Shown here piece after piece: positions 3,646 through 57,532 of a DNA stretch of 64,000 bases. How positions within the stretch are numbered: position 1 is the first letter of the stretch; every line of letters begins with the position of its first letter. Source of the stretch: Mobula hypostoma (taxonomy: Eukaryota); the NCBI RefSeq assembly GCF_963921235.1, contig NC_086108.1, forward strand, positions 15,314,001-15,378,000. Direction: 5' to 3'. Position numbers and translations under genes: made by a program. The notes under the pieces are model-generated. The model ran no database searches. It saw only the letters and a list, made by a program, of their open reading frames with translations, and was not told where the DNA came from.

Positions 3646-4406
3646 TGGTATTGTACCAGTTTCTTGTCTCAAGGTGGTAGCTTGGTTGTTTAGAGTTTAG
3701 ACAGAACAGTTCAATTCCTCTGCCATTTCAGTAATTCAGATCTGAGTAGGGGAAACTTTGTTACTGCTTACAGAAAGTAGGCAGTATAGTCTCTCCCCAA
3801 TTTTTGATATACTGATCACTACATTTCTCTGGTACAAATGATTTGACAATACATTGCAGATACAAATCCCAATTCAGACATGAAACTGCAGATACTGCAC
3901 ACAATGTTTGTCAGCACCTGTGAAGTGGTAAAATACAGTAAGTGGGCCCAAAACGGTGACTGACCTGTGGCGTTAGTTCCTCCAGCATTTTGTGTACTGA
4001 TAAACTACTGAGGCTGTTCAAGCAGATTTTGTAACTACTACCAGAGATGAAGGGGTTAAATTGAGGAAAGTCACCTGGGACTTCTCGCTGGAATTCAGAA
4101 GAATGAGAGTGGATCTTACAGAAACACAAAATTTTAAAAGGGATAGATAAGATGGAAGTAGGAAAGTTGTTTCCATTGGTAGGTGGGACTACGAGGGGAC
4201 ATTACCTCAAGATTTAGGATGGAGATGATGAGAAACTTTTTCCCAGCGTGGTGAATCTGGAATCCTCTGCCCAGGGAAGCAGTTGAGATTTCACTAAATA
4301 TATTTAACCCTTACATACTGTAAAAACACCTTTTTTAAAACTGAAATTTGATGACTTTACCTAAAGTGACCCAAAACGTGCAAAAATGAAAACAATTCAT
4401 ATAGGC

Positions 4407-4632
4407 CAGACAGCATCTCTAGGAAGAGGTACAGTTGACGTTTCAGGCCGAGACCCTTCGTGAGGACTAACTGAAGGAAGAGTTAGTAAGAGGACTAACT
4501 CTTCCTTCAGTTAGTCCTCACGAAGGGTCTCGGCCTGAAACGTCAACTGTACCTCTTCCTAGAGATGCTGCCTGGCCTGCTGCGTTCACCAGCAACTTTG
4601 ATGTGTGTTGCTTGAATTTCCAGCATCTGCAG
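4407..4632. mobile_element. Fold-back mini-element derived from the Penelope-like tail
   Basis: Perfect 77-bp arms 4411-4487 and 4494-4570 with a 6-nt loop; flanking repeat AATTCATATAGGC at 4394-4406 and 4633-4645. Confidence 0.9.
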
Positions 4633-5034
4633 AATTCATATAGGCTATATTAATTACTGCAAAAGGAGGACTTTCCATTAAACGGCATTACATACCAGAC
4701 TGCAGCCAATCAGTATACTCTGCACCACACCTTGTTTCAGATGTCATGTGCTGAATCTCTGCTAACTCCTAAGGAAATAGAAGGGCTATTGGGCTTCTTA
4801 ATTTGCACTTGGGTGCTGGTCTAACCCTCTCCGATGAGGACTGGTTCATTGACTTCAAGTTTCTCCTGAAGACTACAATGTCAGCTGCTTGGTCCTGCTT
4901 ATACTAAGTGAAAGGTTATGACACTGCTCAGCTAAATTTATAATCTCCCTCCATCAGTACCTTTGATACGACCCCAAACTTGAATATAGGTGTAAATCTG
5001 GGGGATAAGCACACAGCTCTGTGATGATGGAGCA

Positions 5035-5640
5035 AGCCAGGCAGCAAGAGGTAGTCGACGTTTCAGGCCAAGACCCTTCGTCAGGATTAATTGAAGGAAG
5101 AGCGAGTAAGAGATTTGAGGGGGGGGGAGATCCAAAATGATGGGAGAAGACAGGAGGGGGAGGGATGGAGCCAAGAGCTAGACAGGCGATTGGCAAAAGG
5201 GATATGAGAGGATCATGGGACGGGAGGCCCAGGGAGAAAGAAAGGGGGGGGGGAACCCAGAGGATGGGCAAGGGGTATAGTCAGAGGGAGAAAAAGGAGT
5301 GTGAGAGAAAGAATGTGTGTATATAAATAACAGATGAGGTACGGGGGGGGGCATTAGCGGAAGTTTGAGAAGTCAATGTTCATTCCATCAGGTTGGAGGC
5401 TACCCAGACGGAATATAAGGTGTTGTTCCTCCAACCTGAGTGTGGCTTCATCTTTACAGTAGAGGAGGCCATGGATAGACATGTCAGAATGGGAATGGGA
5501 TGTGGAATTAAAATGTGTGGCCACTGGGAGATCCTGTTTTCTCTGGTGGACAGAGCGTAGGTGTTCAGCAAAACGATCTCCCAGTCTGCGTCGGGTCTCG
5601 CCAATACATAGAAGGCCACATCGGGAGCACCGGACCGTGC
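5035..5640 (-). mobile_element. Penelope-like element 3' fragment with GIY-YIG endonuclease C-terminal part
   Basis: ORF 5354..5704(-) reads VRCSRCGLLCIGETRRRLGDRFAEH...MNIDFSNFR; the tail carries the hammerhead core. Confidence 0.9.
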
Positions 5641-5882
5641 TCCCGATGTGGGGTGTTGAACAGGTAGGTGCAACACCTTGCACTCCTTTGGTAGAGACGT
5701 ACATCTACCACGCCACTCATTATTGTGTATTAATCGTTTTATATTAACAAAATTAATGAAGGATGTATGATTGATTAGGAAGCGAAAATTTAAGAGTGGA
5801 GAGGGAAAATCCTCTGTGTAATGAAGAAAGTGGATGTGGTGGGAAGAATTCAGGTTGTACTGAGGTGGGGTGTAAAATGACA

Positions 5883-5974
5883 ACACAAAAATGCTGGAGG
5901 AACTCAGCAGGCTAGGCAGCATTTTGTGTGTGTTCGGATTTCCAGCATCAGCAGATTTTCTCTTTTTTTGCGGC
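5883..5974. mobile_element. Minimal (~92 bp) fold-back PLE-tail element
   Basis: ACAAAAATGCTG...CAGCATTTTGTGT hairpin plus family tail; flanked by GTAAAATGACA (5872-5882) and GTAAAAATGACA (5975-5986). Confidence 0.75.
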
Positions 5975-6669
5975 GTAAAAATGACAGGAAGATATGGTAA
6001 GTGGGTATAGGTGAAGTAATGGTTCCCATTCTACCTTATCTAAATCCAACACTGGTAGCACTTGCTGTTCCAGCATATACTCCACCTTGACACTTCACGC
6101 ATTTCACTGTATCTGTTCCCCCCTCCCCACCTTCCTCTTTGTTTGCCTTATCTATCATTCACCTGTTATTGTCTCCCAACTCTACATCCGCTTAGCTCGC
6201 TTACCTGACACTAACTGCCTGTCGTCTTCCATTCCTCACAGTGTGTGCTTTCTCCACACAGTCCTGATGAAGAGTTTCGACCTGAAACATCAGCGTCCCA
6301 ACTATCCTCTCAAAGATGCTGTTCAACCCATTGAGTGCTTACCGCAGATTGCGTTGCTGCAGTCTCTTGTGTGTCTCAGGAATGATTAGCATGATGACAA
6401 ATAATTGGTGGTATTGACAATGAGGGGTGTCGTTTTAGGCAGCTACAGGGTGGTATTAGCAGGCAGGGCAATGGGAAATGGAATATAACCCCAATCTGGT
6501 GATGCATCAAGGGAGGGCGAGTAGGGATAGGGCATGTTGAACGATAAGGCTTTATCGAATATTGGTGTACACATCCGAGGATCATTGAGGGTCAGATATA
6601 GTGAAAAAACATACACTATACTGTACTTCATTAGTTAGGGTGTGGAATAAATGAGTAGGGAGGTTATGA

Positions 6670-7250: not shown

Positions 7251-7916
7251 CTGACATGGCTGGAGGCCCCAGAAAGTGAGTGGGGATGAGGAGAGATTCC
7301 TTGACCCCGGCTGGATGGGGAGGAAGAAGAGTGGGACTCAGCAGGGTTTCTGGGTCGCATGGCCACTACGATAGAGCGGACTGATGTAGAGAGTGCCGAC
7401 TAGATTGAAGAGAGACTGACAGAGACAGATCCCAAAAAACTCTGCACTAATGGGCCTTCTCTCCCCCCCGACCCCCCCCCTCATCCCTGACAATTATAGA
7501 GAGAGATCCGTGATCTTTGACATGGGAAGCATGAGGGTGAGAATTAGTGTAGCCTGTGACAGTAGTTCCATGTCAAGATGTGTGACTTGGAGAGGAGTCT
7601 GCAGTTTCTGGTGTATACTCGCATCGGCTACTCTTGTCCTCAGACTGAGGTGTAGAGCAGCCTTCAGGTTTAACTGTACTGCACTTTGGATATGTTGACA
7701 CTGCAGCCATTATGTACCAGTGGTGAGATGTTTGGCAAGCTGAGCGATTTCTTTGTCCTCAGTGGTTTCCAACTCGATGAGAATTGTTGCAACCTGTGGC
7801 ATCTAGAGAAATTGAAAGTGCCATGATATTTTTGACCTTTGTCTTGTTGATGGAAAAGTCATCATGAGATATGCAATCTATGGCCTGCTTTTGTTAACAT
7901 GCTATTTATTTGATTG

Positions 7917-8112
7917 AATCACAAATGAGAAATCTGTAGGTGCTGAAAATCCGAGCAACACACACAAAATGCTGGAGGAACTCAGCAGGCCAGGCAGCAT
8001 CTATGGAAAAAAAGTACTGTCGACGTCTCGGACTGAAATGTCGACTGTACTTTTTTCCACATATGCTGCATGGCCAGCTGAGTACCTCCAGCATTTTGTG
8101 TATGTCGCTTGC
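7917..8112. mobile_element. Fold-back PLE-tail mini-element
   Basis: Imperfect hairpin centred near 8030; TSD ATTTATTTGATTG at 7904-7916 and 8113-8125. Confidence 0.88.
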
Positions 8113-8321
8113 ATTTATTTGATTGGTCTAATTGAGTCTCCTAGCAACAAATATCAAAGGGAGGTGGTCTGACTCTTGGAGTTGGTCATTGATTGGTCTT
8201 TTTGTGGGTCAGCTGTAACTTACTTTTCACTTAACACCATTAATGATAAAGGAAGACATTGAGTGCATGGTAAAGCTAGTCAGAAATGTAAAAACATACT
8301 AAAAGTTTTTGTAACAACAAG

Positions 8322-9090
8322 AGTAAGGTGGTTCAGTTTGGTGGGTCAAATATGATGACAGAATATAGTATTAATGGTGAGACTCTTGGCAGTGTGGAGG
8401 ATTAGAGGGATCTTGGGGTCCGAGTCCATAGGACACCTAAAGCTGCTGTGCAGGTTGACTCTGGTTAAGAAAGCATATGGTGCACTGGCCTTCATCAATC
8501 GTGGTATTGAGTTTAGGATCCGAGAGGTAATGTTGCAGCTATATAGGACCCTGGTCAGACTCCACTTGGAGTACTGTGCTCATTTCTGGTCACCTCACTA
8601 TAGGAAAGATGTGGAAACCATAGAAAGGGTGCAGAGGAGATTTACGAGGATGTTGCCTGGATTGGGGAGCATACCTTATGAGAATAGGTTGAGTGAACTT
8701 GGCCTTTTTTCCTTGGAGCAATGGAGGATGAGAGATGACCTGATAGAGGTGTATAAGATGATGAGAGGCATTGATCGTGTGGATAGTCAAGAGGCTTTTT
8801 CCCAGGGCTGAAATGGCTAGCACAAGAGGGCACAGTTAAGTAGGTACAGAGGAGATGTCAGGGGTAAGTTTTTTACGCAGAGAGTGGTGAGTGCGTGGAA
8901 TGAGCTGCCGGCGACGGTGGTGGAGGCGGATACGATAGAATCTTTTAAGAGACTCCTGGATCGGAACATGGAGCTTAGAAAAATAGAGGGCTATGGGTAA
9001 CCCTAGGTAATTTCTAAAATGTGTACATGTCTGGCACAGCATCGTGGGCGGAAGGGCCTGTATTGTGCTGTAGGTTTTCTATGTTTCTAT
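8322..9090 (+). mobile_element. CR1 LINE 3' end
   Basis: LYRTLVRLHLEYCAHFWSPHYRKDVETIERVQRRFTRMLPGL (CR1 ORF2 C-terminus); (TTCTATGT)n-type tail at ~9077-9090. Confidence 0.92.
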
Positions 9091-11304
9091 AACTGTGCAG
9101 GAAGAACTCAGTAGGTTGAACAGCATCTGTGGGAGAAAGGAGCTGTTAACATTTTCGGACGAAACCCTGCATCAAGTTTATGCAATGTTCCTTTCCAACC
9201 AAAGATGCTGCTTGATCCGCTGAGTTCTTCCAGGTGATTCCAGCATCTGCAGTCTCCTTTGGCTCTGAAAGTTTTTTTTTTGCATTTGGGCAAAAGGGAC
9301 ATGGTAGATTTAAATAGTTTGTACCTGTCTTTATAGAGAATACACTGAACATTCCAAAAATGTTTGTTAGTGATTACACAATATTTACTATCATTCAAAA
9401 AATAATGCTTCTCACCTTCTTTCAGTTCCTGTTTTACAGCTAACAAACATTTTCACTTCTGACCTTATAGAAGATAAGTCATTAGTAAAGCAGCTGAAGG
9501 TAGTTGAGCCTCGAACACAGCCATGAGTAATTCTTGCACTGATGCACTGGAGCTGGAATGATTGAATTTAGAACAGTACATACAGCACAGGAACAGGCCC
9601 TTCAGAATGTTGACCAACTAGTAATTAACTGCTTAATTAAATGAATTCTGCCTACACAAGGTTCATGCTGCTCCATTCTCTGCATCTGCACGTGCCTTCT
9701 AAGCGTTTTAAACACCTCTGTTGTATTTGCTCCCTCTCCCGCCCAGGCACTTTCCACACGATGTTGAAAAAGAAACTTGCCTGCGTGCCCCCTTTGAACT
9801 TAACCCATATCACTTAAAAAGCATGCCGTCTGTTATTGGACATTTTAATCCTGAGGAAAATGATACTGGCTTCTACTTTATCTTGCTTGTCATAAGTTGA
9901 TAATATAGGCCTTCTCTCAGCCTATTGTTTCAGAAAGAAAATGCCAACTTTGTCCAACCCCATCTGATAGCACATGCCCTTTGTATGTAAGTGCTGTGAA
10001 GGATCCTGCCATTATCGGTGTACTCTCCATTTATATTTGGTCTCCCAAAGTGCAGCACTTCGCATCTGAAACATAGAAACATAGAAAACCTACAGCACAA
10101 TGCAGGCCCTTCGGCCTACAGAGCTGTGTCGAACTTTAGAAATTATCTAGGGTTACCCATAGCCCTCTATTTTTCTAAGCTTCATGTACCTATCCAAGAG
10201 TCTCTTAAAAGACCGCATTGTATCCGCCTCCACCACCATTGCCGGCAGCCCATTCCACGCACTCACCACTCTCTGCATAAAAAAACTTACCCCTGACATC
10301 TCCTCTGTACCTACTTCCAAGCACCTTAAAACTGTGTCCTCACCTGTTAGCTATTTCAGCCCTGGAAAAAAGCCTCTGGCTATCCACCCAATTAATGCCT
10401 CTTATTATCTTATACACCTCTGTCAGGTCATCTCTCATCCTCCGTTGCTCCAAGGAGCAAAGGCCGAGTTCAGTCAATTTATTCTTATAATGCATTCTCC
10501 CCAATCCAGGTAACATCCTTCTAAATCTCCTTTGCACCCTTTCTATAGTTTCCACATCCTTCCTGTAGTGAGGTGACTGGAACTGAGCACAATACTCCAA
10601 GTGTGGTCTGACAAGGGTCCTATATAGCTGTAACATTACCTCTGGGCTCTTGAACTGAAATCCACAGTTGATGAAGGTCGATATATCATATGCCTTCTTA
10701 AACACACAGTCAACCTATGCAGCCGCTTTGAGTGTCCTGTGGACTCGGACCCCAAGATCCCTTTGATCCTCCACACTGCCAAGAGTCTTACCATTAATAC
10801 TATATTCTGCCATCATATTTGACCTACCAAAATGAACCACCTCATACTTATCTGGGTTGAACTCCATCTGCCACTTCTTAGCACGGTTTTGCATCCTATC
10901 AATGTCCCGCTGTAACCTCTGACAGCCCTCCACACTATCCACAACACACCTAACCTTTGTATCATCAGCAAATTTAATAACCCATCCCTCCACTTCCTCA
11001 TCCAGGTCATTTATAAAAATCACAAAGAGAAGGGGTCCCAGAACAGACCCCTGAGGCACACCTCCACGGACCTCCATGCAAAATATGACCCGTCTACAAC
11101 CACTATTTGCCTTCTGTGGGCAAGCCAATTCTGGATTCACAAAGCAATGTCCCCTTGGATCCCATGCCTCCTTACTTTCTCAATAAGCCCTGCATGGGGT
11201 ACCTTATCAAATGCCTTGCTGAAATCTATATACACTACATCTACTGCTCTTTCTTCATCAATGTGTTTAGTCACATCCTCAAAAAATTCAGTCAGGCTTG
11301 TAAG

Positions 11305-11792: not shown

Positions 11793-12459
11793 CAAAGGCA
11801 TGATCTTCCTTTGACAAAGCCATGCTGACTATTCCTAATCATACTATGCCTAACCAAATGTTCATAAACCCTGCTTCTCAGTATCTTCTCCATCCACTTA
11901 CCAACCACTGAAGTAAGACTCACTGGTCTATAATTTCCTGGGCTATCTCTACCCCCTTTCTTGAATAAGGGAACAACATTTGCAAACCTCCGATCCTCCG
12001 AACTTCTCCCTTCCCCATTGATGATGCAAAGATCATCGCCAGAGGCTCAACAATCTCCTCCCTCGCCTCCCACAGTAGCCTGAGTTATATCTCGTCCGGT
12101 CCCAGTGACTTATCTAACTTGATGCTTTCCAAAAGCTCCAGCACATCCTCTTTCTTAATGTCTACATGCTTAAGCTTTTCAATCCGCTGTAAGTCATCCC
12201 TACAATTGCCAAGATCCTTTTCTGTAGTGAGTATTCATTAAGTACCTCCGCTACCTCCTCCAGTTCAATACACACTTTTCTACTGTCACACTTGATTGGT
12301 CCTATTCTCTCACATCTTATCCTCTTGCTCTTCACGTACTTCTAGAATGCCTTGGGTTTTTTCTTAATCCTGCTCGCCAAGGACTTCTCATAAACCCTTC
12401 TGGCTCCCCTAATTTCATTCTTAAACTCCTTCCTTCTAGCCTTTTAATCTTCTATCTCA

Positions 12460-14661
12460 CTACGACCATCAGGCCATATTCCTCCTCCCGGCTTACAAAC
12501 AGAAACTGAAGCAGGAGGTCAAGGTGTCAAAAGTAGTGTTGCGTTGGATGGAGGAAACAGATGAGGTCCTCCGTGACTGCTTTGAGTTGGTGGACTGGTT
12601 AGTATTCAAGGACTCAGCAGCTGACCTCGATGAGTATGCCTCAGCTGTCATGGACTTTATTTGGAAATGCACGGAGGACTGTGTGTCTCGCAAGACGATC
12701 CGGGTATTCCCTAACCGGAAACCTTGGATGAATTATGAGGTCAAGTCCCTTTTAAAGGCTAGAGCTGCGGCTTTTAGGTCAGGAGATACCAGTCGCTACA
12801 CGGAATCCAGGCGTGAAGTCCGGAAAGCCATTAAGGACGCCAAGAGGCAATATGGAGCCAAGTTGGAAGCCCAGGCTAACCAAAGGGATGCCAGTAGACT
12901 ATGGCAGGGTCTAAATGAGATCACTGGGCGCAAAGAAAAGGCTGGGAATATCAATAACTGTGGCGCTTCTCTTCCTGACGAACTTAACATATTCTACGCA
13001 AGATTCGAACAGAAGAGGAGCGTCCTGCTCCCTCCGGATGAACCGGACCTGGTGGCATCGAGATTCATCGTCACTGAGGAGGACGTTAGAAGGGCCTTCC
13101 TGAAGATAAATCCAAGGAATGCGGCGTGCCCAGATGGCATCCCAGGACGGGTTCTCCGGGCCTGTGCAAGCGAGCTAGCTGGAGTGTTTGCTGACATCTT
13201 CAACTGCTCCTTGCTTCAGTCTAAGATCCCCTTGTGTTTTAAGAAGGCAACAATAATCCCAGTGCCGAAGAAGAGCAAGGTGGCATGCCTGAATGACTAT
13301 CGACCTGTGGCTCTGACATCAATTGCTATGAAGTGCTTCGAGAGATTGGTTATGGCACACATCAACCACACCCTACTGGTCAACCTCGACACTTTGCAAT
13401 TCGCCTACCGGAGCAACAGGTCAACGGCAGATGCCATCTCTCTGGCTCTACATTCCTCCTTAGAACACCTGGAGAATAAAGACGCATACATAAGGCTCCT
13501 TTTCATTGACTACGGCTCTGCCGTTAATACCATCACTGATTCCTAAGCTCCGGAACCTGGGCCTTAGCACTCAGATCTGCAGCTGGATCTTCAACTTCCT
13601 CCCAGACGGGATCCAGGCTGTAAAAACAGGGGACAAGCTCTCCTCTACAATCACTCTGAGCACCGGTGCCCCACAAGGCTGTATACTCAGCCCCCTGCTG
13701 TACTCACATGATTGTGTAGCTAAGTTTCCATCAAACTCAATATATAAGTTTGCTGATGACGCAACAATTGTAGGCCGTACCTCGGGTAATGATGAGTTTG
13801 AGTACAGAGAAGAAATTAAGAACCTGGTGGCATGGTGCGAAGACAATAACCTATCCCTCAACGTCAGCAAGATGAAGCAATTGGTTGTTGACTTCAGAAG
13901 GAGTAGCGGACCGCATGACCCAATTTACATCGGTGGCGCGCAAGTGAAACAGGTCAAAAGCTTTAAGTTCCCTGGGGTCAATATCACAAATGACCTGACT
14001 TGGTCCAACCCAGCAGAGTTCACTGCCAAGAAGGCCCACCAGCGCCTTTATTTCCTGAGAAAACTAAAGAAATTTGGCCTGTCCCCTAAAACCCTCACTA
14101 ATTTTTATAGATGCACCGTAGAAAGCATTCTTCTAGAGTGCATCACAACCTGGTATGGAAGTTGTCCTGTCCAAGACCGAAAGAAGCTGCAGAAGATCGT
14201 GAACACGGCGCAGCACATCACACAAACCAATCTTCTGTCCGTGGACTGACTTTACACCGCATGCTGTCGGAGCAGTGCTGCCAGGATAATCAAGGACATG
14301 ACCCACCCAGCCAACACACTTTTCGTCCCTCTTCCCTCCGGGAGAAGGTTCAGGAGCTTGAAGACTCATACGGCCAGACTTGGGAACAGTTTCTTTCCAA
14401 CTGTGATAAGACTGCTGAACGGATCCTGACCGGATCTGGGCTGTACCCTCCAAATATCCGGACCTGCCTCTCAGTTTTTTTGCACTACCTTACTTCCCAT
14501 TTTTCTATTTTCTATTTATGATTTATAATTTAAATTTTTAATGTTTACTAATTTTAACTATTTTTAATATTTTTAATATTTAATGTTTGTAATCCAGAAT
14601 CAAATATCGCTGTGATGATTGTACCAATACCAATTGTTTGGCGACTATAAAGTATAAAGTA
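12460..14661 (+). mobile_element. Rex1/Babar LINE, 5'-truncated, frameshifted RT
   Basis: ORFs 12524..13546 and 13506..14249: CLNDYRPVALTSIAMKCFERLV, LQFAYRSNRSTADAI, GAPQGCILSPLLYS, KFADD; (ATAAAGT)n tail. Confidence 0.92.
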
Positions 14662-14904
14662 ACTCTATCATTACCTAGTTTTTTGAACCTTTTGTAAGTT
14701 TTTCTTTTCTTCTTGACTAGATTTTCTACAGCCTTTGTGCACCATGGTTCCTGTACCTTACCATCTTTTCCCTGTTTCATTGGAATGCCATGCAAATATC
14801 CCCTGAACATTTGCCACGTTTCTGCCATGCATCCTATCCCTCTCCAATGCTATGGTAAAGGAGATAGAATTGTGATCACTATCTCCAAAATGCTCTCCTA
14901 CTGA

Positions 14905-18480: not shown

Positions 18481-19999
18481 GTGAAATAGGTGTATGTTGA
18501 CAATTTTGGTTGAGGAGGATGATCCCGATGCAAGTTCTCAATCAAATCAATTTACACCTTTTGCCTCTACAGATGCTGCTCAACCCACTGAGTTCTTCTG
18601 GTGTTTAATTTTTGTTTCAGATTACAGCATCTGCAGGATTTTTTTTGTTTTCATTGTTTTCATCTGCAATTCTGTGAGTACAAGTGAAATAGGCTGTCAA
18701 AAAAATGCAAATTAATACACAGTGCTGGAAACACCCAGTGGATGAGGGGACATCTTTTGGAAGAGAAATAGAGTTTATGTTTAAAGTCAAAGATCCTGTC
18801 TGACCTGCTGGGTGTTCCCAGCATTTCAGCATTTTCTGGGTTTTTTTTGCAACGGGTTGTTTTCCTGTAAGAAAACAGTCCTAGTTTAAATACCATTCTC
18901 CAGATGTCGACGTGGAGGACTGTGCTAGGTCAGTTTTGATGCCAGCACAAAGATTGATGCACCTTGGTGTGTTGTTTAAGCATTTATTTGAAGAGGACAA
19001 TTCATAGCTACATTGTTGTAGGAAGATTGGGCAGAAATTTTCTCCATTGTGTGGTGTCATGAGTGAGCAGGTTATCTACATCACAGTAAAACCATGAACA
19101 TCTAGTATCTTCATGTTCACCATTATGGAGATTAACTAATCCACTTAGTTAACTAAATTTGAATTCTACAGCTACTGTCATGGGTTTTGAATTACTATTA
19201 TTGCTAGACTGTTGGGTTGAATTTACTAATTCTGACTTTGGTATTTGTTATGCCCGCCACAAAACAAATTTCACCATTAATGTGAGAGACAATAAACCTG
19301 ATTCTGATTCCTATTCTAATTAGCCTTATAGTACTAATCTGGATTGCTAATGAATTTCCATTGATTTCAGTTTTGATATTTTCACAAGTTCAAGCATAAA
19401 AAGCCTTTCACGGAATTTGTTCCAGATCTACCATTCCCCTTTAATTTCGATATCTTGCTGCTTGTTTGGATTCATCCATCTGAGCAAAGATTATTTTATT
19501 TAAAACATCCTCAACTATGCAAACCTGGAACAAGCGAAGTGTATGGTACATTCCCTCAAATTTGAAACTTTTAAGACTTAATATTTCTTTGTGATCGAAG
19601 TGTTGGGTGAGGCTTTGAAGAACAAGCTGCAAACAAACATCTTGGAGTGGAGTTCTGGGGGTGGATGCAAGCTGAGGCAGTGCACCAGGAGTGGAAGGAT
19701 AAGGCTGAATGCTGATTATTGCACAGTGATGCTGTTTTTGTAACACGGAAGTAGGATACTGAGCCCAGTTTATGCTGTAATTGAGGCACCCTTCATCACA
19801 TCAATGTATCCTTCCAGGTTCTGCTAGCTACCTAAGTCATGTGAGTGGGATACACATTTTAAATACTGAGGTAAAGTGGCTTCTCTTGAATTTTGTATCT
19901 GATTTATTAATAGCAATGAATTTATGACCCCTAATTCTGTTGTGGAGTGCCGGCTGAAATAATGTCTAACTTATCAAATTTTCCATAAAATGTCATAAA

Positions 20000-22475: not shown

Positions 22476-23054
22476 TGCATATTCATTATGTGTAAATGAG
22501 GCTTTTCACTAAGTGCTCACAAGTGCACAAACAGGAATAGGCCATAAGGTAATAAGGTGTTTTTATCTGCTCTAACAAATTTTCAGTTCTGCACCACTTC
22601 CCTACACTAACCGGGTCAGACAGCATCTATAGAGGGCAATGGACAGTCAATGTTTTGGATCAGTGCAGATATATGGTCTCAATCCAATACATCAACTGTC
22701 CACTTCCCTCCATTGAGACTGAGTTCCTCCGGCGCCTTGTGTGTTGTTCCAGATCCCAGTCTCTTGAATCTCCCTGCCATAATGCTTGATTTTCTCCAAT
22801 AATTAAAAATCTGTTCCTTCCTGCCTTGAATATATGTAATGACTGAGCATCTGCAGCATCTTGGGTAGTGATTCAGCATCCTTTAGGTGAATGTGAGTTT
22901 TCTTAATTCCAGTCCTGAATGATGAACCTCTTAGTTTCAAATTATAATCCTTGGTTCTAGACACCCAGCAAGGAAAATTAATCAGTTCCTCATCTATCCC
23001 ATCAGGCTTGTAAAAGTGTAGTATATTCCAGCATTTCATTCTACTGAACTCTAT

Positions 23055-25289
23055 TGCTCTCCACTCCCTCCGTACTAATCCTAACATTATTATTAAACCC
23101 GCTGATAAAGGGGGTGCTGTTGTAGTCTGGCGTACTGACCTCTACCTTGCCGAGGCAGAGCGACAACTCGCGGATACCTCCTCTTATTTACCCCTCGATC
23201 GTGACCCCACTAAGGAGCACCAGGCCATTGTCTCCCACACTATCAACGACTTTATCCGCTCAGGGGATCTCCCATCCACTGCTACCAACCTTATAGTTCC
23301 CACACCCCGCACTTCCCGTTTCTACCTCCTAGCCAAGATCCACAAACCTGCCTGTCCTGGCCGACCTATTGTCTCAGCTTGCTCCTGCCCCACCGAACTC
23401 GTTTCTGCATACCTCGACACTGTTTTATCACCCCTTGTTCAATCCCTTCCGACCTATGTTCGTGACACTTCTCACGCTCTTAAACTTTTCGATGATTTTA
23501 AGTTCCCTGGCCCCCACCGCTTTATTTTCACCATGGATGTCCAGTCCCTATATACTTCCATCCCCCATCAGGAAGGTCTCAAAGCTCTACGCTTCTTTTT
23601 GGATTCCAGACCTAATCAGTTCCCCTCTACCACCACTCTGCTCCGTCTAGCAGAATTAGTCCTTACTCTTAATAATTTCTCCTTTTGCTCCTCCCATTTC
23701 CTCCAAACTAAAGGTGTAGCTATGGGCACCCGTATGGGTCCTAGCTATGCCTGCCTTTTTGTTGGGTTTGTGGAACAATCTATGTTCCGTGCCTATTCTG
23801 GTATCTGTCCCCCACTTTTCCTTCGCTACATCGACGACTGCATTGGCGCTGCTTCCTGCACGCATGCAGAACTCGTTGACTTTATTAACTTTGCCTCCAA
23901 CTTTCACCCTGCCCTCAAGTTTACCTGGTCCATTTCCGAGCTCTGGAGACAGCTTATCCACTGATGTCTACTATAAGCCTACTGACTCTCACAGCTATCT
24001 GGACTATTCCTCTTCTCACCCTGTCTCTTGCAAAAACGCCATCCCCTTCTCGCAATTCCTCCGTCTCCGCCGCATCTGCTCTCAGGATGAGGCTTTCCAT
24101 TCTAGGACGAGGGAGATGTCTTCATTTTTTAAAGAAAGGGGCTTCCCTTCCTCCACTATCAACTCTGCTCTTAAACGCATCTCCCCCATTTCACGTACAT
24201 CTGCTCTCACTCCATCCTCCCACCACCCCACTAGAAATAGGGTTCCCCCGGTCCTCACCTACCACCCCACCAGCCTCCGGGTCCAACATATTATTCTCCG
24301 TAACTTCCGCCACCTCCAACGGGATCCCACCACTAAGCATATCTTTCCCTCCCCCCCTCTCTCTGCATTCCGCAGGGATCGCTCCCTACACAACTCCCTT
24401 GTCCATTCGTCCCCCCCATCCCTCCCCACTGATCTCCCTCCTGGCACTTATCCGTGTAAGCGGAACAAGTGCTACACATGCCCTTACACTTCCTCCCTTA
24501 CCACCATTCAGGGCCCCAAACAGTCCTTCCAGGTGAGGCATCACTTCACCTGTGAGTCGACTGGGGTGATATACTGCGTCCGGTGCTCCCGATGTGGCCT
24601 TTTATATATTGGTGAGACCCGACGCAGACTGGGAGACCGCTTTGCTGAACATCTACGCTCTGTCCGCCAGAGAAAGCAGGATCTCCCAGTGGCCACACAT
24701 TTTAATTCCACATCCCATTCCCATTCTGACATGTCTATCCACGGCCTCCTCTACTGTAAAGATGAAGCCACACTCAGGTTGGAGGAACAACACCTTATAT
24801 TCCGTATGGGTAGCCTCCAACCTGATGGCATGAACATTGACTTCTCTAACTTCCGCTAGGCCCCACCTCCCCCTCGTACCCCATCTGTTACTCTTTTTTA
24901 TGCACACATTCTTTCTCTCACTCTCCTTTTTCTCCCTCTGTCCCTCTGAATATACCTCTTGCCCATCCTCTGGGTCACCCCCCCCCCCCCGTCTTTCTTC
25001 CCGGACCTCCTGTCCCATGATCCTCTCGTATCCCCTTTTGCCTATCACCTGTCCAGCTCTCGGCTCTATCCTTCCCCCTCCTGTCTTCTCCTATCATTTT
25101 GCATCTCCCCCTCCCCCTCCAGCTTTCAAATCCCTTACTCACTCTTCCTTCAGTTAGTCCTGACGAAGGGTCTCGGCCTGAAACGTCGACTGCGCCTCTT
25201 CCTATAGATGCTGCCTGGCCTGCTGCGTTCACCAGCAACTTTGATGTGTGTTGCTTGAATTTCCAGCATCTGCAGAATTCCTGTTCTGA
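23055..25289 (+). mobile_element. Penelope-like element (Neptune-like), 5'-truncated, RT + Cys-rich linker + GIY-YIG, one internal deletion
   Basis: Open frame IIKPADKGGAVVVW...KIHK...GRPIVS...MDVQSLYTSI...GVAMGTRMGPSYA...RYIDD to ~23938. A shifted frame then reads VYYKPTD...CKRNKCYTC...VIYCVRCSRCGLLYIGET...MNIDFSNFR* (24859). TSD ACTGAACTCTAT at 23043-23054 and 25290-25301. Confidence 0.95.
25156..25191 (+). ncRNA. Minimal type I hammerhead ribozyme motif in the PLE tail
   Basis: AGTC-CTGACGA-AGGGTCTCGGCCT-GAAAC-GTC-GACT: stem I AGUC/GACU, core CUGANGA and GAAA, a short stem II, GUC cleavage triplet and palindromic ACGU in place of stem III. Confidence 0.75.
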
Positions 25290-25770
25290 ACTGAACTCTA
25301 TGCCTGGTCTGCTTAATCTTTCCTCTTAGGACAGATCTGCCATTTTAAGAGTCATTCTGGCAAAGCTAATTGCACTTCCTCTTTTGCAAGTTTAGAGAGA
25401 CCAGATATTCTAGGCCCAGTCTCAGTAATGCTTTTTTTATTACTGCAGTAAGATGTCTTTAGTCTTGAACTTAAATCTCCTTGCAATAAAGGCCAACATA
25501 TAGTTTATCTCCCTAATTATTTCCCTGCATGTTAACTTTCAGTGATTTATTTGTAGGGACACCCATATCCTGCACCCAGACATCAACATCTTTCAATCAT
25601 TTTACCATTTAAGAAATACTCCATATTTTTATTTTTATTTAATCAATGGGGATGTCCCCTCCTTTAGTGTTACATTTAACCTGCCACATCCTCATCCATT
25701 GACTTTATCTAATTGTACCCCTCTTGAGCTCAATCATCAGGCTCTTGGACAAAGGGGATAACTACACTCA

Positions 25771-36488: not shown

Positions 36489-37387
36489 TGTGACGAGAAT
36501 ACACATAGATTAAGATGTTAGCTGTCCTGTGCTGGCACCAGTGGGATCAGCAGTTGGTCTGCCACCTGTCTTCAGGAGAAAGAGAGATAAGGAAAACAAT
36601 GGAGCAGCATTTGGAGATGTTAATGAAGGGACGGGAGAGTTTAACGGAAGGAGAGCTGTCAAGATCGGCTCCCCCTTTGAACCCTGAACTGTTTGAAGTG
36701 ATGGACAGGCGATACCCCAGCAGGGGGATAAAAAGGGACAGGTTCGCTAAGGCAAGACACACACGACACCCCGAGGTAACGAGACCCTGGAAGCGGTGCG
36801 TCTCCCACAAGTCGGTGGGAAGTTTTGGAGGGCTGGTCGCAGGACCAAGCCATAGACGCGCAGGGTGGAAAGGCACGATCGGCGGGAACGTGGTGTGTGT
36901 CCGCCCTTGCCTGGGTGCCAGGTTCACCGCAGAGAAACGATTGTATCTGGAAACGGAGGGGTCACGGTCGGTGACCTCAGAAGACATCACAAAGGGCTCA
37001 CCCGAAAGCTGACTGCGAAGAATATCGAAGGTCTGTGTGGAAGCCGTTTGAATATTCATTCGTTTTTGCTCTCTCTCTCCTTCCCCCCACTGTCCATCTC
37101 CCACGGCAGTGATTACTGCGAACTGAACTGAATTCAATCGAACTGAACTTTGCGTCACTTTGAAACTGGTCATTTACCCCTAGACGATAGAGCTTGATTG
37201 ATCCTGTTATCCTAATTCTGTGTACATGTGTGTTTATCATTGCTGAACTGTTGCATTTATTATCTTTTTGATTAGAGTACTGTGTTGCTTGTTTCTTTAA
37301 TAAAACTTACTTAGTTCTAGTAATCCGGACTCCAACTGAGTGACCCATTTCTGCTGGTTTGGCAACCCAGTTACGGGGTACGTAACA
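36489..37387 (+). mobile_element. Solo LTR (Ty3/Gypsy- or ERV-type)
   Basis: TG...CA ends, 4-bp TSD AGAC, GATAAAAG TATA-like site at ~36727, AATAAA at 37299; second copy at 52287-53125. Confidence 0.9.
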
Positions 37388-43676: not shown

Positions 43677-43751
43677 GTAGGTTCACTTTTAGTTCAAATT
43701 AATTTTTCTTGGTATCTTTAGATTTGTCACAGAACTAGTGCCAATTATATA

Positions 43752-44836
43752 CAGCTGCAACAAAAAGTTTGTGAATCCTTTGCAATTACCTGGTTTTGTG
43801 CATTAATTACTCACAAAATGTGGTCTGATCTTCATCTGAGTCACAATAATAGACAGACACAATCTGCCTAAACTAATAACATACAAGCAATTGTACTTTT
43901 CACGTCTTTATTGAACACATGTTTTCATCATTCACAGTCTAGGCTGGAAAAGTATGTAAAGCCTTGTATTTAATAACTGGTAGGAACCCCTTTAGCACTA
44001 ATAACCTCTACCGAACATTTCCTATAGCTGCTGATCAGACTTGCACAATGGTAAGGAGGAATTTTACACGATTCCTCCATATAAAACTCATCAATATTCC
44101 TGGGATACCTTGCATGAACAGCTCTCTCCAGGACATACTACAGCATCCCAATTGGGTTAAGTTCTGGACTCTGATTTGGCCATTCCAAAGAATGAATTTT
44201 CTTCTTTTTAAACCATTCTGTTGTTGATTTACTCTTGTGTTTCGGATCATTGTCTTGTTCCATCATCCAACTTCTATTAAGCTTCAGGTGAATGACAACT
44301 ACCCTGACATTCTCCTGTAAAATGTCTTGATAAATATTGAATTCATTGTTCCCTTAACAATTGCAAACTGTCCTGGTCCTGAGGCAGCAAAGCAGTCCTA
44401 AATCATGATGTTCCTTCCACTGTGCTTCACAGTTGGGATGAGGTTTTGGTATTGGTGTGCAGTGTCCTTTTTCCTCCAAATATAGCAGCGCGCATTTCTG
44501 CCAAGAAGTTCAACTTTTATCTTATCTGTCCACAGAAGTGTTGTGGAACATCCAGGTTGCAAACTTGAGACTTACAGCAGTGTTTTTTTTTGGAAAGCAG
44601 TGGTGTCTTGTTCAGCGTTTTTCTTATAGTGGACTCTCCTGCCGAAGGGTTTCTGCCTAAAATGTCGACTGTACTCTTCTAGATGCTGCATGGTTGCTGA
44701 GTTCCTCCAGCATTTGTGTATGTTGCTGGCTTTATCTATTATTGTGACTTAGATGAAGCTCAGACCACATTTTATGAGTAATTAATGCAGAAAACCAGGT
44801 AATTGCAAAGGGTTCACAAGCTTTTTCTTGCAACTG
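43752..44836 (-). mobile_element. Internally deleted Tc1-like transposon, with a short PLE tail near its right end
   Basis: ~105-bp TIRs CAG(C/T)TGCAA(C/G)AAAAAG..., TA on both flanks; transposase remnants on the minus strand; PLE-tail sequence at ~44637-44730. Confidence 0.85.
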
Positions 44837-46097
44837 TAAATAGATGAAATATTTATTGTTAAGTGAGTAAATAAATATCAAAGATGTCATTCAAGCCTTG
44901 ATCCTGTACTGAGTCTGAATGGTGTCTACTTTGGAAACAGCGCCCCTTTTGATTTTCAACATTGACAGCGTCAAATGCTCCAGGTGATTATTCAAGAGTA
45001 ATTTCTTTTGCACAACATAACTAATCTCAGTTCTCATAAAAAGGCTGCTCATTCAATTGCCATATGGAATCACTTTCTGCAGATTTGCAGTGCCCATAAT
45101 GGTTGACAGTGGGGCTTTGTGAATCAGCAGTGGAAGGGAGATATTTATTTTTGGGTCAGGCAATGTCTGAGACAGAACAACATTTCCATGGATGAAGCTG
45201 GTAATTAGTGTTCGGTCTTCTCGCTAGAATCCATTAAACAAGTGGAAATTATCTGAAGATGGCTTATTCATCAAAAACAGCAAACATAATTGCTATCCTT
45301 TCAGATGTCTTTCAATCCAATACGTTAGTGCTATTGTTGTGTGTGTTTGCATAGAACATAGAAAATCTACAGCACATTATAGGCTCTTTGGCCCACAATG
45401 TTGTGCTGACCATGTAACCTACTCTAGAAGCCGCCTAGAATTTCCCTACTGCATAGCCCTCTATTCTTCTAAACTCAATGTACCTATCTAAGAGTCTCTT
45501 AAAAGACCCTATTGTTTACCATTAGTATGCTCACTGATGCTTATTTTAGGCCAGAGCAAGTACTAGGATAACTAACCATGACTACAGGATGGAATTTTTC
45601 TCAGAACAATCCCAAGAGATTGGCCAAATTTATTGTAGATTTCTGCAATGGCTAAAGTGTTGACACATGAAAAGTGATTGTAGCAGTTGAAGACCGCCTT
45701 GGAAATTACTGTGTGTCTTCAGGCCATTCATCTTCATATTAATGATGACACTGATAAATTGATCCTGTTTCCCTTGTCTTGATGTAGGGTAACACCCAAG
45801 TTGAGCTGACATACTGTATGATATATATTCTATTGAAATGAAGAAATTTAAACTTCTTTCACTGTAATATTGCCAATATTTTTCAATTCTCTCATATAAG
45901 TTTCTTGAGGGCTGCCGGACCAAGGCACACCAATGATGTGGCTATATAACGTTCTGCATTGTCACTGGAGTTTTGAGCTTCATCCGTAGCCACAACCACA
46001 GTAAAGAAGTTGAACATTATCTGTCTCCTTCATCAGTGTCAGCTAGATTTGAGTATAGTGGGAGTTTCTATTCAGAGGTCAAATGTATTTTCTATAA

Positions 46098-47374: not shown

Positions 47375-48049
47375 GCACAAAAAATGCTGGTGAACGCAGC
47401 AGGCCAGGCAGCATCTATAGGAAGAGGTACTGTCGACGTTTCGGGCTGAGACCCTTCGTCAGGACTAGCTGAAAGAAGAGATAGTAAGAGATTTGAAAAT
47501 GGGAGGGGGAGGGGGAGATCCAAAATGATAGGAGAAGACAGGAGGGGGTGAGATGAAGCAAAGAGCTGGAAAGTTGATTGGCAAAAGGGATATGAGGCTA
47601 GCGAAAGGAGAGGATCATGGGACGGGAGGCCTAGGGAGAAAGAAAGGGGGAGGGGAGCCCAGGGGATGGGCAAGGAGTTATAGTGAGAGGGACAGAGGGA
47701 GGGGAAAAAAAAAAGGAGATAAATAAATAAATAAATAAGGGATGGGGAACGAAGGGGAGGTGGGGCATTAACTGAAGTTAGAGAAGTCAATGTTCATGCC
47801 ATCAGGTTGGAAGCTACCCAGACGGAATATAAGGTGTCGTTCCTCCAACTTGAGTGTGGCTTCATCTTGATGGTAGAGGAGGCCGTGGATAGACATATCA
47901 GAATGGGAATGGGATGTGGAATTAAAATGTGTGGCCACTGGGAGATCCTGCTTTCTCTGGCGGAGAGAGTGCGGGTGTTCAGCGAAAGGGTCTCCCAGCC
48001 TGCATCGGGTCTTGCCAATGTATAGAAGGCTGCATCGGGAGCACCGGAC
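47375..48049 (-). mobile_element. Penelope-like 3' fragment with intact hammerhead core (47432-47466)
   Basis: Reverse complement of ~24578-25240; the minus strand reads AGTCCTGACGAAGGGTCTCAGCCCGAAACGTCGAC. Confidence 0.9.
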
Positions 48050-50886: not shown

Positions 50887-51130
50887 CAAGAAGAATAAGG
50901 TTAGGATAATAGGTGGTTTTAACTTTGTACATATTCAGTGGGACTATAAATGGGCTGGGAGAGGTAGAGTTTGTCAAATGTGTTCAGGAAAGTTTCCCTA
51001 ATCAGTACATAGAGCCCAACGAGAAAGGGTGTGATGCTAGATCTCGTATTAGGAAATGAGACAGGGCAGTTGATAGAAATTTATGTAGTCACTTTGCATC
51101 CAGTGACCATAATGCCATTAGTTTCAAGAT

Positions 51131-52286: not shown

Positions 52287-53125
52287 TGTTACGTACCCCG
52301 TAACTGGGTTGCCAAACCAGCAGAAATGGATCACTCAGTTGGAGTCTGGAGTACTAGAACTAAGAAAGTTTTATTAAAGAAACAAGCAACACATTAATCG
52401 AAAGGATAATAAATGCAACAGTTCAGCGATGATAAACGCACATGTGCACAGAATTAAGATAACCGCATCAATCAAGCTCTATCGTTGACTAGGGGTAAAT
52501 GACCAATTTCAAAATGACTCAAAGTTCAGTCCAGTTTGTAGTTCAGTTCGCAGTAATCGTTGTCATGGCGATGGACAAGGTGGGGAAGAGAGACATAGAA
52601 TAGGAACAACTCATCATTCAGCACAGCTTCACTCACAGACCAGCGAGATGGCTCACAAACAGCATTTGGGCGGGTCCTTGGTGATGTCACCTGAGGTCAC
52701 CGACTGTGACCCCTCCTCCAGATGCGGTCGATCCTCTGCAGTGAACCCGGCACCCAGGCAAGGGCGGACATCGTACCTTTCCACCCTGGTCGTTGTCTGG
52801 TACTTCTCACCCACTCGTGAGAAGCGTACCGCTTCCAGGGTCTCGTTACCTCGGGTGGCGTGTGTGTCTGTCTTAGCGAACCTGTCCCTTTTTATCCCCC
52901 TGCTGGGGTATCGCCTGTCCATCACTTCAAACAGTTCAGGGTTCAAAGGGGGGAGCCGCTCCAGACAGCTCTCCCTCCCACATCCCTTCATTACACATCT
53001 CCAGACGCTGCTCCATTGTTCCTTATCTCTCCTTCCCCTGAGGGCAGGTGGCAGACCAACTGCTGATGCCACTGATGCTAGCCCAGGCCAGCAAACATCT
53101 TAATTTTATGTGTATTCTCGTAACA
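52287..53125 (-). mobile_element. Solo LTR, same family as 36489-37387
   Basis: Reverse-complement homology along its length; TG...CA ends; TSD CAAG. Confidence 0.9.
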
Positions 53126-53542
53126 CAAGGGACAAAATTGGTCCTCTGGAAAATCAGAGTGGTCATCTCTGCATGGTGCCAAAAGAGAAGGGGTGTCTTA
53201 AATGGATTTTTTGCATCTGTATTTACTCGGAAGACAGACTCAGAGTCTATAGAAGTAAGGCAAAGCAGTAATGAGGCCATGGATTGTACATTGAATACAG
53301 AGGAGGTGTTTGCTGTTTCAAGACAAATCAGGTACAGGAAATTCTGATACTTATAAAGAATTATTTGCACACACACAACTTCTGAGCTATAGGAAAGAAA
53401 CAAAAGCATGTTTACTCATGTAAGTTTTTCACGGACTAACAGTTCTAGTTTAATACACTTACCAACAACACTCCTGTGCAATTCTAAACACTAATCAGGG
53501 TGCAGGTTTAGCTATTCACTAAGGGAGTAAGAGTAACTTTCA

Positions 53543-54669
53543 CAAACACAAGGAAATCTGCAGATGCTGGAATTTCAAGCAACAAACTTAAAAGTTGCTG
53601 ATGAACGTAGCAGGCCAGGCAGCATCTCTAGGAAGAGGTACAGTCGACATTTTGGGCCGAGACCCTTCGTCAGGACTAACTGAAAGAAAAGATAGTAAGA
53701 GATTTGAAAATGGGAGGGGGAGGGGGAGATCCAAAATGATAGGAGAAGACAGGAGGGGGAGGGATGAAGCCAAGAGCTGGAAAGTTGATTGGCAAAAGGG
53801 ATATGAAAGGATCATGGGACGGGAGGCCTAGGGAGAAAGAAAGTGGGGGGGGGGATCCCAGAGGATGGACAAGGAGTATAGTGAGAGGGACAGAGGGAGA
53901 AAAAGAGAGAAGAAAATAATAATATATATAATAATAATAAATAAATAACAGATGGGGTACGAGGGGGAGGTAGGGCATTAACGGAAGTTAGAGAAGTCAA
54001 TGTTCATGCCATCAGGTTGGAAACTACCCAGACGGAATATAAGGTGTTGTTCCTCCAACCTGGCTCTGTCCGCCAGAGAAAGAAGGATCTCCCAGTGGCC
54101 ACACATTTTAATTCCACATCCCATTCCCATTCTGATATGTCTATCCATGGCCTCCCCTACTGTCAAGATGAAGCCACACTCAGGTTGGAGGAACACCACC
54201 TTATATTCCGTCTGGGTAGTCTCCAACCTGATGGCATGAACATTAACTTCTCTAACTTCTGTTAATGCCCCACCTCCCCTTCGTACCCCATCCATTATTT
54301 ATTTATTATTATTATATATGTATATTATTCTTTTTCTCTCTCTTTTTCTCCCTCTGTGCATCTCACTATACTTCTTGTCCATCCTCTGGGATTCCCCCCT
54401 CCCCCTTTCTTTCTTCCCTGGCCTCCCATCCCATGATCCTTTCATATCCCTTTTGCCAATCAACTTTCCAGCTCTTGGCTTCGTCCCTGTCCCTTCTGTC
54501 TTCTCCTATCATTTCAGATTTCCCCCTCCCCCTCCCACCTTAAAATCTCTTGCTATTTCTTCTTTTAGTTAGTCCTGACGAAGGGTCTTGGCCCCAAACG
54601 TCGACTGTACCTCTTCCTAGAGATGTTGCCTGGCCTGCTGTGTTCACCAGCAACTTTTAAGTGTGTTGC
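53543..54669. mobile_element. 1.1-kb fold-back Penelope-like insertion (inverted 3' ends)
   Basis: Minus arm 53543-54061 joined to plus arm 54062-54669; TSD TAAGAGTAACTTTCA at 53528-53542 and 54670-54684. Confidence 0.93.
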
Positions 54670-56578
54670 TAAGAGTAACTTTCAAACACTTTTCCCAATA
54701 GCAGCCATTCCCCTTACAAGACAAACAACATTATTTGTTCTGTGATGTTTACTTACAGGGTCAATGATGATGGTGTACTTAAATGCTAACTTGGCTCAGT
54801 TTCTAACGCTGATGCGCAAGTCAAATGAAGCAATCTTAGCTAATGCTACAGAGGGCACTTTCAAGAAGAGCCCTTTCTCTAAGCAGAAGTTAGGAAGTAA
54901 GCCCATTTTCCCATTCAGGTGAATTTGTTACTGTGCGAAAGGAACTAATAATTTATCAGAATCCTAGCCAATATTTCTTGCTGCACTGGAGTGTGTAAAG
55001 CACCAACAGGTTTTGCAGTTGTTGGGTTTGGCTGTGCACAGTATGCCCACCCAACAGTGATTACACTTCAACAGTATTTTGATGTTTTTCAGAAAATAAA
55101 TGGATTTCTCAATATTAAGAGAATCAAGAGATATGAGATCAAAGCAAAAAAAAACTGAAGGTAAAACAATCAGATGTGATGGCATTAAAAAGGCAAAGCA
55201 GAGGGAAGATTGAATGCTTCTGTTTCTTATTGTGTCACACCTGGCTGTGAAGTATGTGCAGAAATCCCATGGGTACAATTAAAGAACTGTATAACAACAA
55301 GCTCTTTCTTTAAGTTTGAAATGAAGGTCTATTTTTCAACCAGGAAAGGGTTTCCAAACTTACTCCTTTTGCATCAATGACACATTCACATGTGCGTATA
55401 TCTACACACACACACACACACAAAACTACTACTGGTGTCATTGATCAATATTAATCCTTACATTATTTAATCTTGTGGTTCCATTGTTGTGGTACAAAGA
55501 CTCCTCAGGGAACAGAAGAGACAAACACAAGGGCTCAGAGGCTTTTGTAGTATTGAGATTGTTTAAATGAAATACATTTGGCATTCCAGCTGTCCAAGCA
55601 GACCTGGGAATTCTTGGGACAACCACAACTCTTTGAAAGGGGTAGCCAATGATGTTGTCAATTACATGGTTTTTTCATGTAGGAAATAGGTGCAAGTTAC
55701 CAACTGTGAACAAGAGGGGCTTTCATTGAATTAAAAAAAACTGGGAACTACTGGTTTGGTGTCTGGAAGGAGCCTATGCTGAGAAAAACCATCTATGGGA
55801 CTTGTAGCTTCTCATGTGACCAGTGGGAATAGAGAAAAAAATAACTATTAGTATAAGTTCTAATGAAGTTTATGTAAAGAAAGAACCACATCTGACTGGG
55901 GACATAGGAGCTTTCTGGACAACTTCAGATAATGAATATGTAGACCTCCTTTGGGCTCATTTTGGCTTCTCCCATCATCACCCTGTGTTGCACCATTACC
56001 CCTATCACTATTTAATCGTCAGTCTGCCCCGAAGCCCATCATAGATCTGCCCTTCCTTACCTCCCCTCTTTTTTCAGCCTCTGTACTTGCTTAAATTCTT
56101 GTATCTCTATAACTTTTCCAATTTATCTGAGAGCTCTCAGGCTGACTAGTTTGCTTTCCTCACCACTAATACTCTCTGACTTGAGTATTTCCAGCATTTT
56201 TCACTTAAATGGCATCTGAATAGATGAATTAATGGGCTACATTAAAGTAATACCTGTAACAGTTGAAGTGTCCTAAACTGCTTTACAAAACTCAATTCAG
56301 GTAAAATATAGTACTCATTCATAGATCCGCAAAACATTTAAGGAAAGATGAAGCAACATATGAAAGGATAACAACAGGTTTGGTGATGAGAGTTGAGCTC
56401 AAGTTCTAGACATTTGAATGCATGGCACTGATTACAGTAATAGCACAAATCATACAGGCCAATTCAGCTCATCTCATCCATACCGACTGTGATGCTAATC
56501 CCTTTTTCCTACATTAGGCTCAAACCTGTAGGCACCCTTCCTATTCAAGTATCTGTTCATACACCTTAAATCTTGTAA

Positions 56579-56782
56579 CACACATCTAAGTTGCCGGTGA
56601 ACGCAGCAGGCCAGGCAGCATTCCTAGGAAGAGGTACAGTCGACGTTTCGGGCCGAGACCCTTCGCCCTGAAATGTCGACTGTACCTCTTCCTAGAGATG
56701 CTGCCTGGCCTGCTGCGTTCACCAGCAACTTTGATGTGTGTTGCTTGAATTTCCAGCATCTGCAGAATTCCTCGTGTTTGCG
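56579..56782. mobile_element. Fold-back PLE-tail mini-element
   Basis: Hairpin centred near 56660; 16-bp TSD ACCTTAAATCTTGTAA at 56563-56578 and 56783-56798. Confidence 0.92.
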
Positions 56783-57532
56783 ACCTTAAATCTTGTAAAT
56801 GTATCTGTCTCCATTGTAAAATGTGATAGCTACAAAATTCTCTATAGTAGCTCACTCACTTCATATCAACTCAGTGATAGGCAAGTTATCATTGAAACAC
56901 ATCAAGCTCTGTTCTGTGCTACACATAATCTTACCTTGGACTTTAATCTTGCCCTTTGGCAGAACTGGCAATTACAGCGGCATTTGAAGCATTGTGCATC
57001 TACTGAGCCTAGATTTAAAGAAACCAGTTGATTGGGATGACCAATGTCTGAGGTAATAGCTTTTCTTTTGGATTATTTGGTTATTTCCATATTTTCAAAA
57101 GTCCAAGGTTCTGAAAATATGGCCATAGGAGCCTCAATGCAGACAGCTTTTTCATCAAAGTGACACATTCTGACCATTATCCTCAGTTTCCTTCAGACCA
57201 ATTTTGGATCCAACATTACACTTTCCCTTGAGTCCTGTGGACTTCCACTTCCATGACCAGATCGTTAAGATCTTGCCAAGTGCTTGGCTGAAATTTATGT
57301 GGGCAATATCAAATTCCTTTTCTTCACTGCCAGTCCTCTCTAAACAACAGTCAAAGAGATGAAGTACAATGTACAATCTAACGGCTATACGTTGTAATAG
57401 AGGAAGTACTAAAGAGTTTAGCATCTTTGAAATTGAATAGATTACCAGGACCAGGTGAAATACATGCCAGCTTTGTAAACGAAGTAAGTAAGTAAATTAT
57501 GGAAGTTCTAACTGACATTTTGCTGGTTTCTT

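Follow-up and report, generated by a model that had tools for sequence, protein, structure and literature searches.

In a window of 64,000 nucleotides (nt) from the genome of Mobula hypostoma (NCBI RefSeq assembly GCF_963921235.1, contig NC_086108.1, positions 15,314,001–15,378,000 of the forward strand), five insertions (A–E) each consist of an inverted copy of the end of a Penelope-like element (PLE) joined head-to-head to a forward copy. Self-comparison and reading of the junctions bear out all five of these fusions, which an initial annotation had reported from the letters alone, at the coordinates listed in Table 1. In our view, each element is probably a single dead-on-arrival insertion of a Neptune-type PLE, formed as the target is cut twice in a stagger, both strands prime, copying stops early and the inner ends are joined. 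The evidence supports the formation of each hairpin during its own integration or shortly afterwards. The annotated view that the elements are retro-derived, each with its own fold-back point, and are not copies of a master miniature inverted-repeat transposable element (MITE) agrees with the presence of five apexes in five elements, with their distribution over three sequence subfamilies, and with the finding that the flanking duplication of E is target DNA.

Table 1. Features of the window discussed in the text. Positions count from the first letter of the window; inner ends are template coordinates, all of which refer to the long copy 23055–25289. TSD, target-site duplication; z, z-score of folding; RT, reverse transcriptase; LINE, long interspersed nuclear element.
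Feature	Position	Strand	Length	Structure	TSD	Inner ends on the template
Fold-back A	4407..4632		226 bp	left arm inverted, tail-less; right arm forward	4394-4406 / 4633-4645 (13 bp, exact)	tail-less arm 25125-25132; other arm 25136-25142
Two-armed insertion B	5883..5974		92 bp	left tail-less, right tailed	5874-5882 / 5978-5986 (9 bp, exact)	tail-less 25206-25209; tailed 25240-25245 (~25234 including shared letters)
Fold-back C	7917..8112		196 bp	left tailed, right tail-less; apex ~8025, within hammerhead motif	7904-7916 / 8113-8125 (13 bp, exact)	tail-less 25155-25172; tailed 25183-25197
Fold-back D	56579..56782		204 bp	left tail-less, right tailed	56563-56578 / 56783-56798 (16 bp, exact)	tail-less 25161-25168; tailed 25172-25179
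Fold-back E	53543..54669		1127 bp	left tailed, right tail-less; apex 54062/54063	53528-53542 / 54670-54684 (15 bp, exact)	tail-less (right) ~24657; tailed (left) 24775
Empty paralogous site of E's target	60452..60466	-		15-mer present once		
Long single-armed PLE copy	23055..25289	+		5'-truncated, frameshifted; RT, CX2-5CxxC linker, GIY-YIG, 3' repeat	23043-23054 / 25290-25301 (12 bp)	
Minimal hammerhead motif of the long copy	25155..25192	+		predicted cut between 25187 and 25188		
PLE end copy	5005..5652	-	~640 bp	15-bp inverted stub at inner end; no tail arm	none clear	
Older fold-back F	9096..9265			left end adjoins LINE 3' end; z -5.5/-4.1	none found	
Older fold-back G	18708..18855			ends uncertain; z -2.9/-3.2	none convincing	
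Older fold-back H	22610..22765			appears nested, a counter-example to the stagger; z -2.9/-5.9	none found	

The long copy encodes an RT followed by a C-terminal GIY-YIG endonuclease, as fits an endonuclease-positive PLE. Its matches to RVT_1 (E 7e-6) and to GIY-YIG (E 3e-4) each lie slightly below the Pfam cut-off, its Atlas feature matches to GIY-YIG/HTH_animal clusters reach 0.96, and DKG and YIDD motifs are present, as is a CCHH motif, with its cysteines placed between VIY and YIG and its histidines downstream. A CX2-5CxxC linker lies at amino acid (aa) 246 of the open reading frame 23720–24859, and the source element is predicted to be a Neptune/Nematis-type PLE, its clade being read from this linker alone; assignment to the Poseidon clade was dropped once the linker had been found. 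The window holds no full-length or tandem copy (direct pseudo-long terminal repeat, pseudo-LTR). The family is very abundant, since 261,040 of the 29.8 million contigs of run X1 matched an 886-bp reference; the summed depth in this run, which is not a copy number, was 10–16 million over positions 25150–25269 versus 2–8 million upstream. Pattern scans found no further copies in viral contigs, in two metagenome scans or in prokaryote genomes. An apparent common 5' end at 24578 in two copies proved to be a BLAST edge effect.

Among the younger families in the window we count 11 insertions: five two-armed, five single-armed and one with a 15-bp inverted stub. In each of the five two-armed elements an inverted 5'-truncated copy adjoins the 5' end of its partner within one TSD, and the arms overlap on the template by 17 to ~480 nt. 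The annotation had described all of them as hairpins made of the tail only. This holds for the composition of A, B, C and D, whereas in E the arms enter the coding region of the endonuclease, by ~200 and ~85 nt (stop at 24859). As to folding, A, C, D and E are predicted to form strong hairpins (z of -14 or lower versus shuffles), whereas B, whose arms share only ~17 nt of template, folds no better than its shuffles (z of -0.35, 0.0 and -1.8). Matches of A and D to Rfam microRNA families lay far under the gathering scores and reflect the hairpin shape only.

Between the two arms of A, only 1 of 81 letters is different, and two variants are common to both, one of them a change in the hammerhead core; the common core change and the near-identity indicate one source template or a later conversion. 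The arms of E have 7 private sites in common, versus 3 or fewer with any other row of 7. Homogenisation between the arms of E was considered and rejected: they diverge by 8.9% from each other, and by 8.1% and 11.8% from the copy at 47376.

The flanking duplications of A, C, D and E are exact and measure 13–16 bp, in line with the annotated range of 11–16 bp; that of B is exact over 9 bp and reaches 11 bp only if a 1-nt indel is allowed. Chance repeats of this kind are rare: when 19,981 placements were drawn at random, 7 gave an anchored repeat of at least 9 bp, six of them with 9 bp and one with 15 bp, the latter probably E's own duplication. E was inserted inside another repeat, and the paralogue of this repeat carries the 15-mer once; the duplication of E is therefore target DNA, which contradicts, for E, the possibility that the duplications belong to the element consensus.

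The outer ends fall at two places on the template, an inner site at ~25250–25258 and a second site ~35–40 nt further 3'. One outer end lies at each site in four of the elements, so that only one end carries the tail: the right end of B and D, and the left end of C and E. Both outer ends of A lie earlier than the usual sites, an atypical position, and they too are unequal. The far end is also a loose end in 408 contigs. A tail of 30–40 bp at one end only has been described for PLEs (PMC8557442, PMC3846280), and in vitro the tail is the stretch between two RT start sites (PMC11167929).

At six of the ten outer junctions the target could be compared with the continuation of the element RNA; the four tailed junctions were left out because sequence beyond the tail is absent from the window. 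The matches extend over 4, 5, 4, 2, 1 and 0 nt, a sum of 16 against a null mean of 2.6, which was reached in 9 of 200,000 AT-rich random draws (p ~5e-5) and remains significant without the junction of C (p 3e-4). A has matches at both of its atypical outer ends (4 and 5 nt), in the orientation required if each target strand served as a primer.

At the inner ends, the tail-less arm begins further upstream on the template than the tailed arm in all five elements and for all near-best splits. The arms are staggered, and in none of the five are they nested. The inner ends are closer within a pair than after re-pairing of the arms (p 0.003), although very unequal pairs are harder to notice. Microhomology at the apex, which the annotation had raised as a test, is found in some elements only: B has 6 nt in inverted orientation, D has 3 nt (apex 56663–56665, within hammerhead stem II), C has 2 nt exact or 7 with one mismatch, and A and E have none. 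Matches of at least 3 nt thus occur in 2 of 5 elements versus 4.6% expected among random pairs (p 0.02).

The right arm of E and the PLE copy ending at 3645 both begin at ~24657, and one strand-change joint among the 15 listed for run X1 ties 24660 to 25233, near the inner end of B; 24657–24660 and 25233–25234 are possible recurrent stop sites. Several joints of the same run go from 25184–25246 back to 25145–25160 and may be retrozyme-like tandems or further apexes.

The duplications, the end sites, the junction matches and the stagger are direct observations, and we propose the following course of events for them. The endonuclease would cut AT-rich DNA on both strands, 9–16 nt apart as inferred from the TSDs. 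Uncut element RNA would then be reverse-transcribed from both target 3' ends, with one start at the inner site and the other ~35–40 nt further 3', in the tail; the presumed priming would be helped by 1–5 nt of pairing between target and RNA. Both cDNAs would stop early, at nearby points, and their inner ends would be joined head-to-head, sometimes via short inverted matches in the RNA (B, C and D, not A and E). Such priming and joining would make the apex private to each insertion. A Poseidon-clade PLE studied in vitro behaves in a comparable way: both strands are cut and extended, two RT start sites bound the tail, and a dimer is predicted (Frangieh et al. 2024, PMC11167929). We presume that these properties carry over from Poseidon to Neptune.

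Several observations weigh against this course of events. The in vitro data come from another clade, in which the start site is reported to lack homology with the cut DNA, and the excerpts of that work describe no inverted products (PMC11167929). Four of the ten outer junctions are unscored, and without both junctions of A the match signal drops to p ~0.01. The sign test for the stagger is weak (0.0625 two-sided, n = 5 elements), and the offset between the arms is no more than 4–15 nt in A, C and D. When the older copies are added, 7 of 8 are staggered (p 0.07); F and G agree with the stagger, with uncertain ends, and H appears nested. A and E lack apex microhomology. Finally, the 15-bp inverted stub at 5638–5652 indicates that snap-back-like events occur too.

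Within the proposed course, we lean towards two arms copied from one RNA rather than from two. A stricter form of this idea, which is conceivable and which we hold only tentatively, is that a PLE dimer uses both target strands as primers on a single RNA, one at each start site; the enzyme at the tail site would trail the other, displace the cDNA made from the inner site and be unable to overtake it. If true, this rule would explain the one-sided tail, the head-to-head overlap, the common source of the arms, the coupled inner ends and the polarity, and inverted pseudo-LTRs would no longer be attributed to antisense self-priming. Two RNAs copied to similar lengths would, however, also yield the stagger.

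Self-priming, or snap-back, is unlikely; it was proposed for antisense RNA by Arkhipova et al. 2013 (PMC3846280) and put forward for the tail in PMC8557442. One strand, either the first cDNA or an antisense RNA, would fold at a short palindrome, and staggered resolution by the endonuclease would give the one-sided tail. The junction palindromes and microhomologies of B, C and D are consistent with it, and so are the arms of A, with 1 of 81 letters different and two common variants, the seven common private sites in E, and the fold-back stub. In its simple form it nevertheless fits none of the five elements, because a self-copied second arm must lie inside the first; the target/RNA matches at both ends of A and the lack of an apex match in A and E also speak against it. 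Self-priming with later trimming by the endonuclease may be considered as a variant. The stagger and the matches on both sides favour priming on both strands followed by joining at the apex over simple snap-back, and of the two routes named in the annotation, snap-back or twin priming at integration, priming on both target strands is the one that fits.

It is improbable that the apexes arose after insertion, through loss of the centres of longer head-to-head insertions by microhomology-mediated deletion. Apex microhomology in B, C and D would suit such an origin, PLE copies often carry microhomology deletions (PMC3846280), and the old copies F, G and H have internal deletions. Deletion gives, however, no cause for a polarity that is fixed in five of five elements; A is young (1 of 81 letters different) and short already, and single-armed copies (for example, 44637–44727) are short too.

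A conventional family of MITEs or short interspersed nuclear elements copied from a hairpin master is very improbable. Hairpin shape, TSDs and the very high abundance of the terminal 130 bp would be expected of one, but the five copies have five apexes, a tail that switches sides, unequal ends and TSDs varying from 9 to 16 bp. In run X1 the best joint reached a depth of 314 versus 2–16 million for the family, and among the 15 listed of at least 463 joints from the contig runs one was a strand change and none was a strand change of high depth.

The annotation had derived the elements from a ribozyme-bearing PLE tail and had placed the turn in or next to the hammerhead in three of the short ones. 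The placement is correct: C and D turn inside the motif, and A turns ~25 nt upstream of its core. Both hammerhead core motifs are kept in the long copy and two others, which would carry a predicted ribozyme, but in none of the ten arms (none of eight in A, C, D and E, with B having no hammerhead sequence). The Rfam hammerhead models gave no match at E 0.5. The predicted cut of the long copy presupposes a core layout that we take to be valid for it. None of the ten arms begins at this cut (offsets from -531 to +46, the nearest being -4 in the left arm of C), and eight of ten run upstream past it, so that the template RNA appears to have been uncut. In vitro the ribozyme cut is dispensable, and uncut RNA is the main substrate (PMC11167929). 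That hammerhead self-cleavage ended the RNA template and set the turn is thus highly unlikely, despite the apexes of C and D inside the motif and the 4-nt distance of C's left arm, given these counts, the same core change in both arms of A and the dispensability of cleavage in vitro. The apexes near the hammerhead would reflect not cleavage but a position 70–130 nt from the start sites, in a region rich in short inverted matches.

In LINE-1 twin priming both target strands prime on the RNA, which leaves an inverted 5' part inside one TSD, and the inverted and forward parts are adjacent without overlap. Measured by this criterion, the elements described here differ, as their arms overlap on the template in five of five; B is nearest to the LINE-1 geometry. 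Closer counterparts are the complex insertions of endonuclease-positive PLEs, with an inverted 5'-truncated copy, a TSD, a one-sided tail of 30–40 bp and junction palindromes, "all other variants also observed" (PMC3846280, PMC8557442). Our elements share with them the head-to-head orientation, the variable TSD, the tail at one end, palindromes or overlaps at the inverted junction and AT-rich targets; unlike them, they have both arms reduced to 40–600 bp, with only two ends left. The fixed stagger and the primer matches at both ends have no counterpart in the excerpts of these two papers. As the main structural features are already described there, the annotation's view of an under-described system is not supported; the elements represent a known PLE insertion pattern in its shortest form, an ordinary structure with a useful mechanistic hint.

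The two start sites that bound the tail downstream of the hammerhead resemble those of PAc, the Poseidon element of Anolis (PMC11167929), which differs in its clade (by the linker found here) and in having a start site reported as non-homologous in place of target matches of 1–5 nt. In Schistosoma, minimal hammerheads were noted in pairs that occupy opposite strands at distances of 100–700 bp (Cervera and de la Pena 2014, PMC4209133); the minimal type I motif in a terminal repeat is common to both cases, unlike the loss of one or both cores from every arm here. Non-LTR retrozymes (bioRxiv 10.64898/2026.07.22.740005) are likewise short non-coding units derived from PLEs with type I hammerheads, but they are described as head-to-tail tandems with intact ribozymes, in contrast to the single head-to-head pairs with broken ones found here.

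A profile search of the window revealed three older, decayed fold-backs (F, G and H) beyond the five already noted, with no matches on the reversed window. The stub region 5605–5660 contains a perfect 15-bp inverted stub with a 6-nt loop, which caps the ~640-bp PLE copy and has the appearance of a genuine short snap-back. Older copies of the PLE end with a single arm lie at six places (3947, 6248, 16412, 18566, 34544 and 40317); of these, the one at 6264 keeps both hammerhead core motifs. A short PLE end (44637–44727) lies between 108-bp inverted repeats (43746–43853 / 44735–44842, 91.7%), which also flank a DDE_3-type transposase remnant (44141–44353).

Other repeats of the window include two inverted LINE 3' fragments, presumably CR1-like, at 8326–9090 and 10073–10842 (84.5% alike over 781 bp, ~1 kb apart), one of which F adjoins; a LINE at 12297–14900 with RT and an ALKBH8_N-like C-terminal domain in two overlapping frames; a Tc1-like transposase remnant (29084–29747); an L1-type ORF1 piece (63258–63722); and a 900-bp repeat at 36489–37387 and 52287–53125 (80% alike, in opposite orientations), of which one tested frame had no Pfam match. 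At the start of the window, a SNORD47-like C/D box small nucleolar RNA (snoRNA) match at 139–207 on the plus strand (E 1e-5; 45.3 bits, with the gathering score at 50) points to a possible snoRNA host transcript. We scanned 298 of 316 unmasked stop-free frames of at least 45 aa (150 of 168 on the minus and 148 of 148 on the plus strand) for host exons; the matches were to transposon domains or weak (E 0.003–0.008), and the intronic setting assumed in the annotation may hold but is not supported by them.

The origin of the inverted pseudo-LTRs of PLEs is stated to be unresolved (PMC8557442, PMC3846280), and the models differ in ways that can be counted: nested versus staggered arms, and primer matches at one end versus both. 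Given the abundance of the family and the proportion of two-armed insertions (5 of 11), one genome should offer enough cases to decide between them. If transcribed, the hairpins of A, C, D and E, as predicted by folding, may also be a large source of double-stranded RNA.

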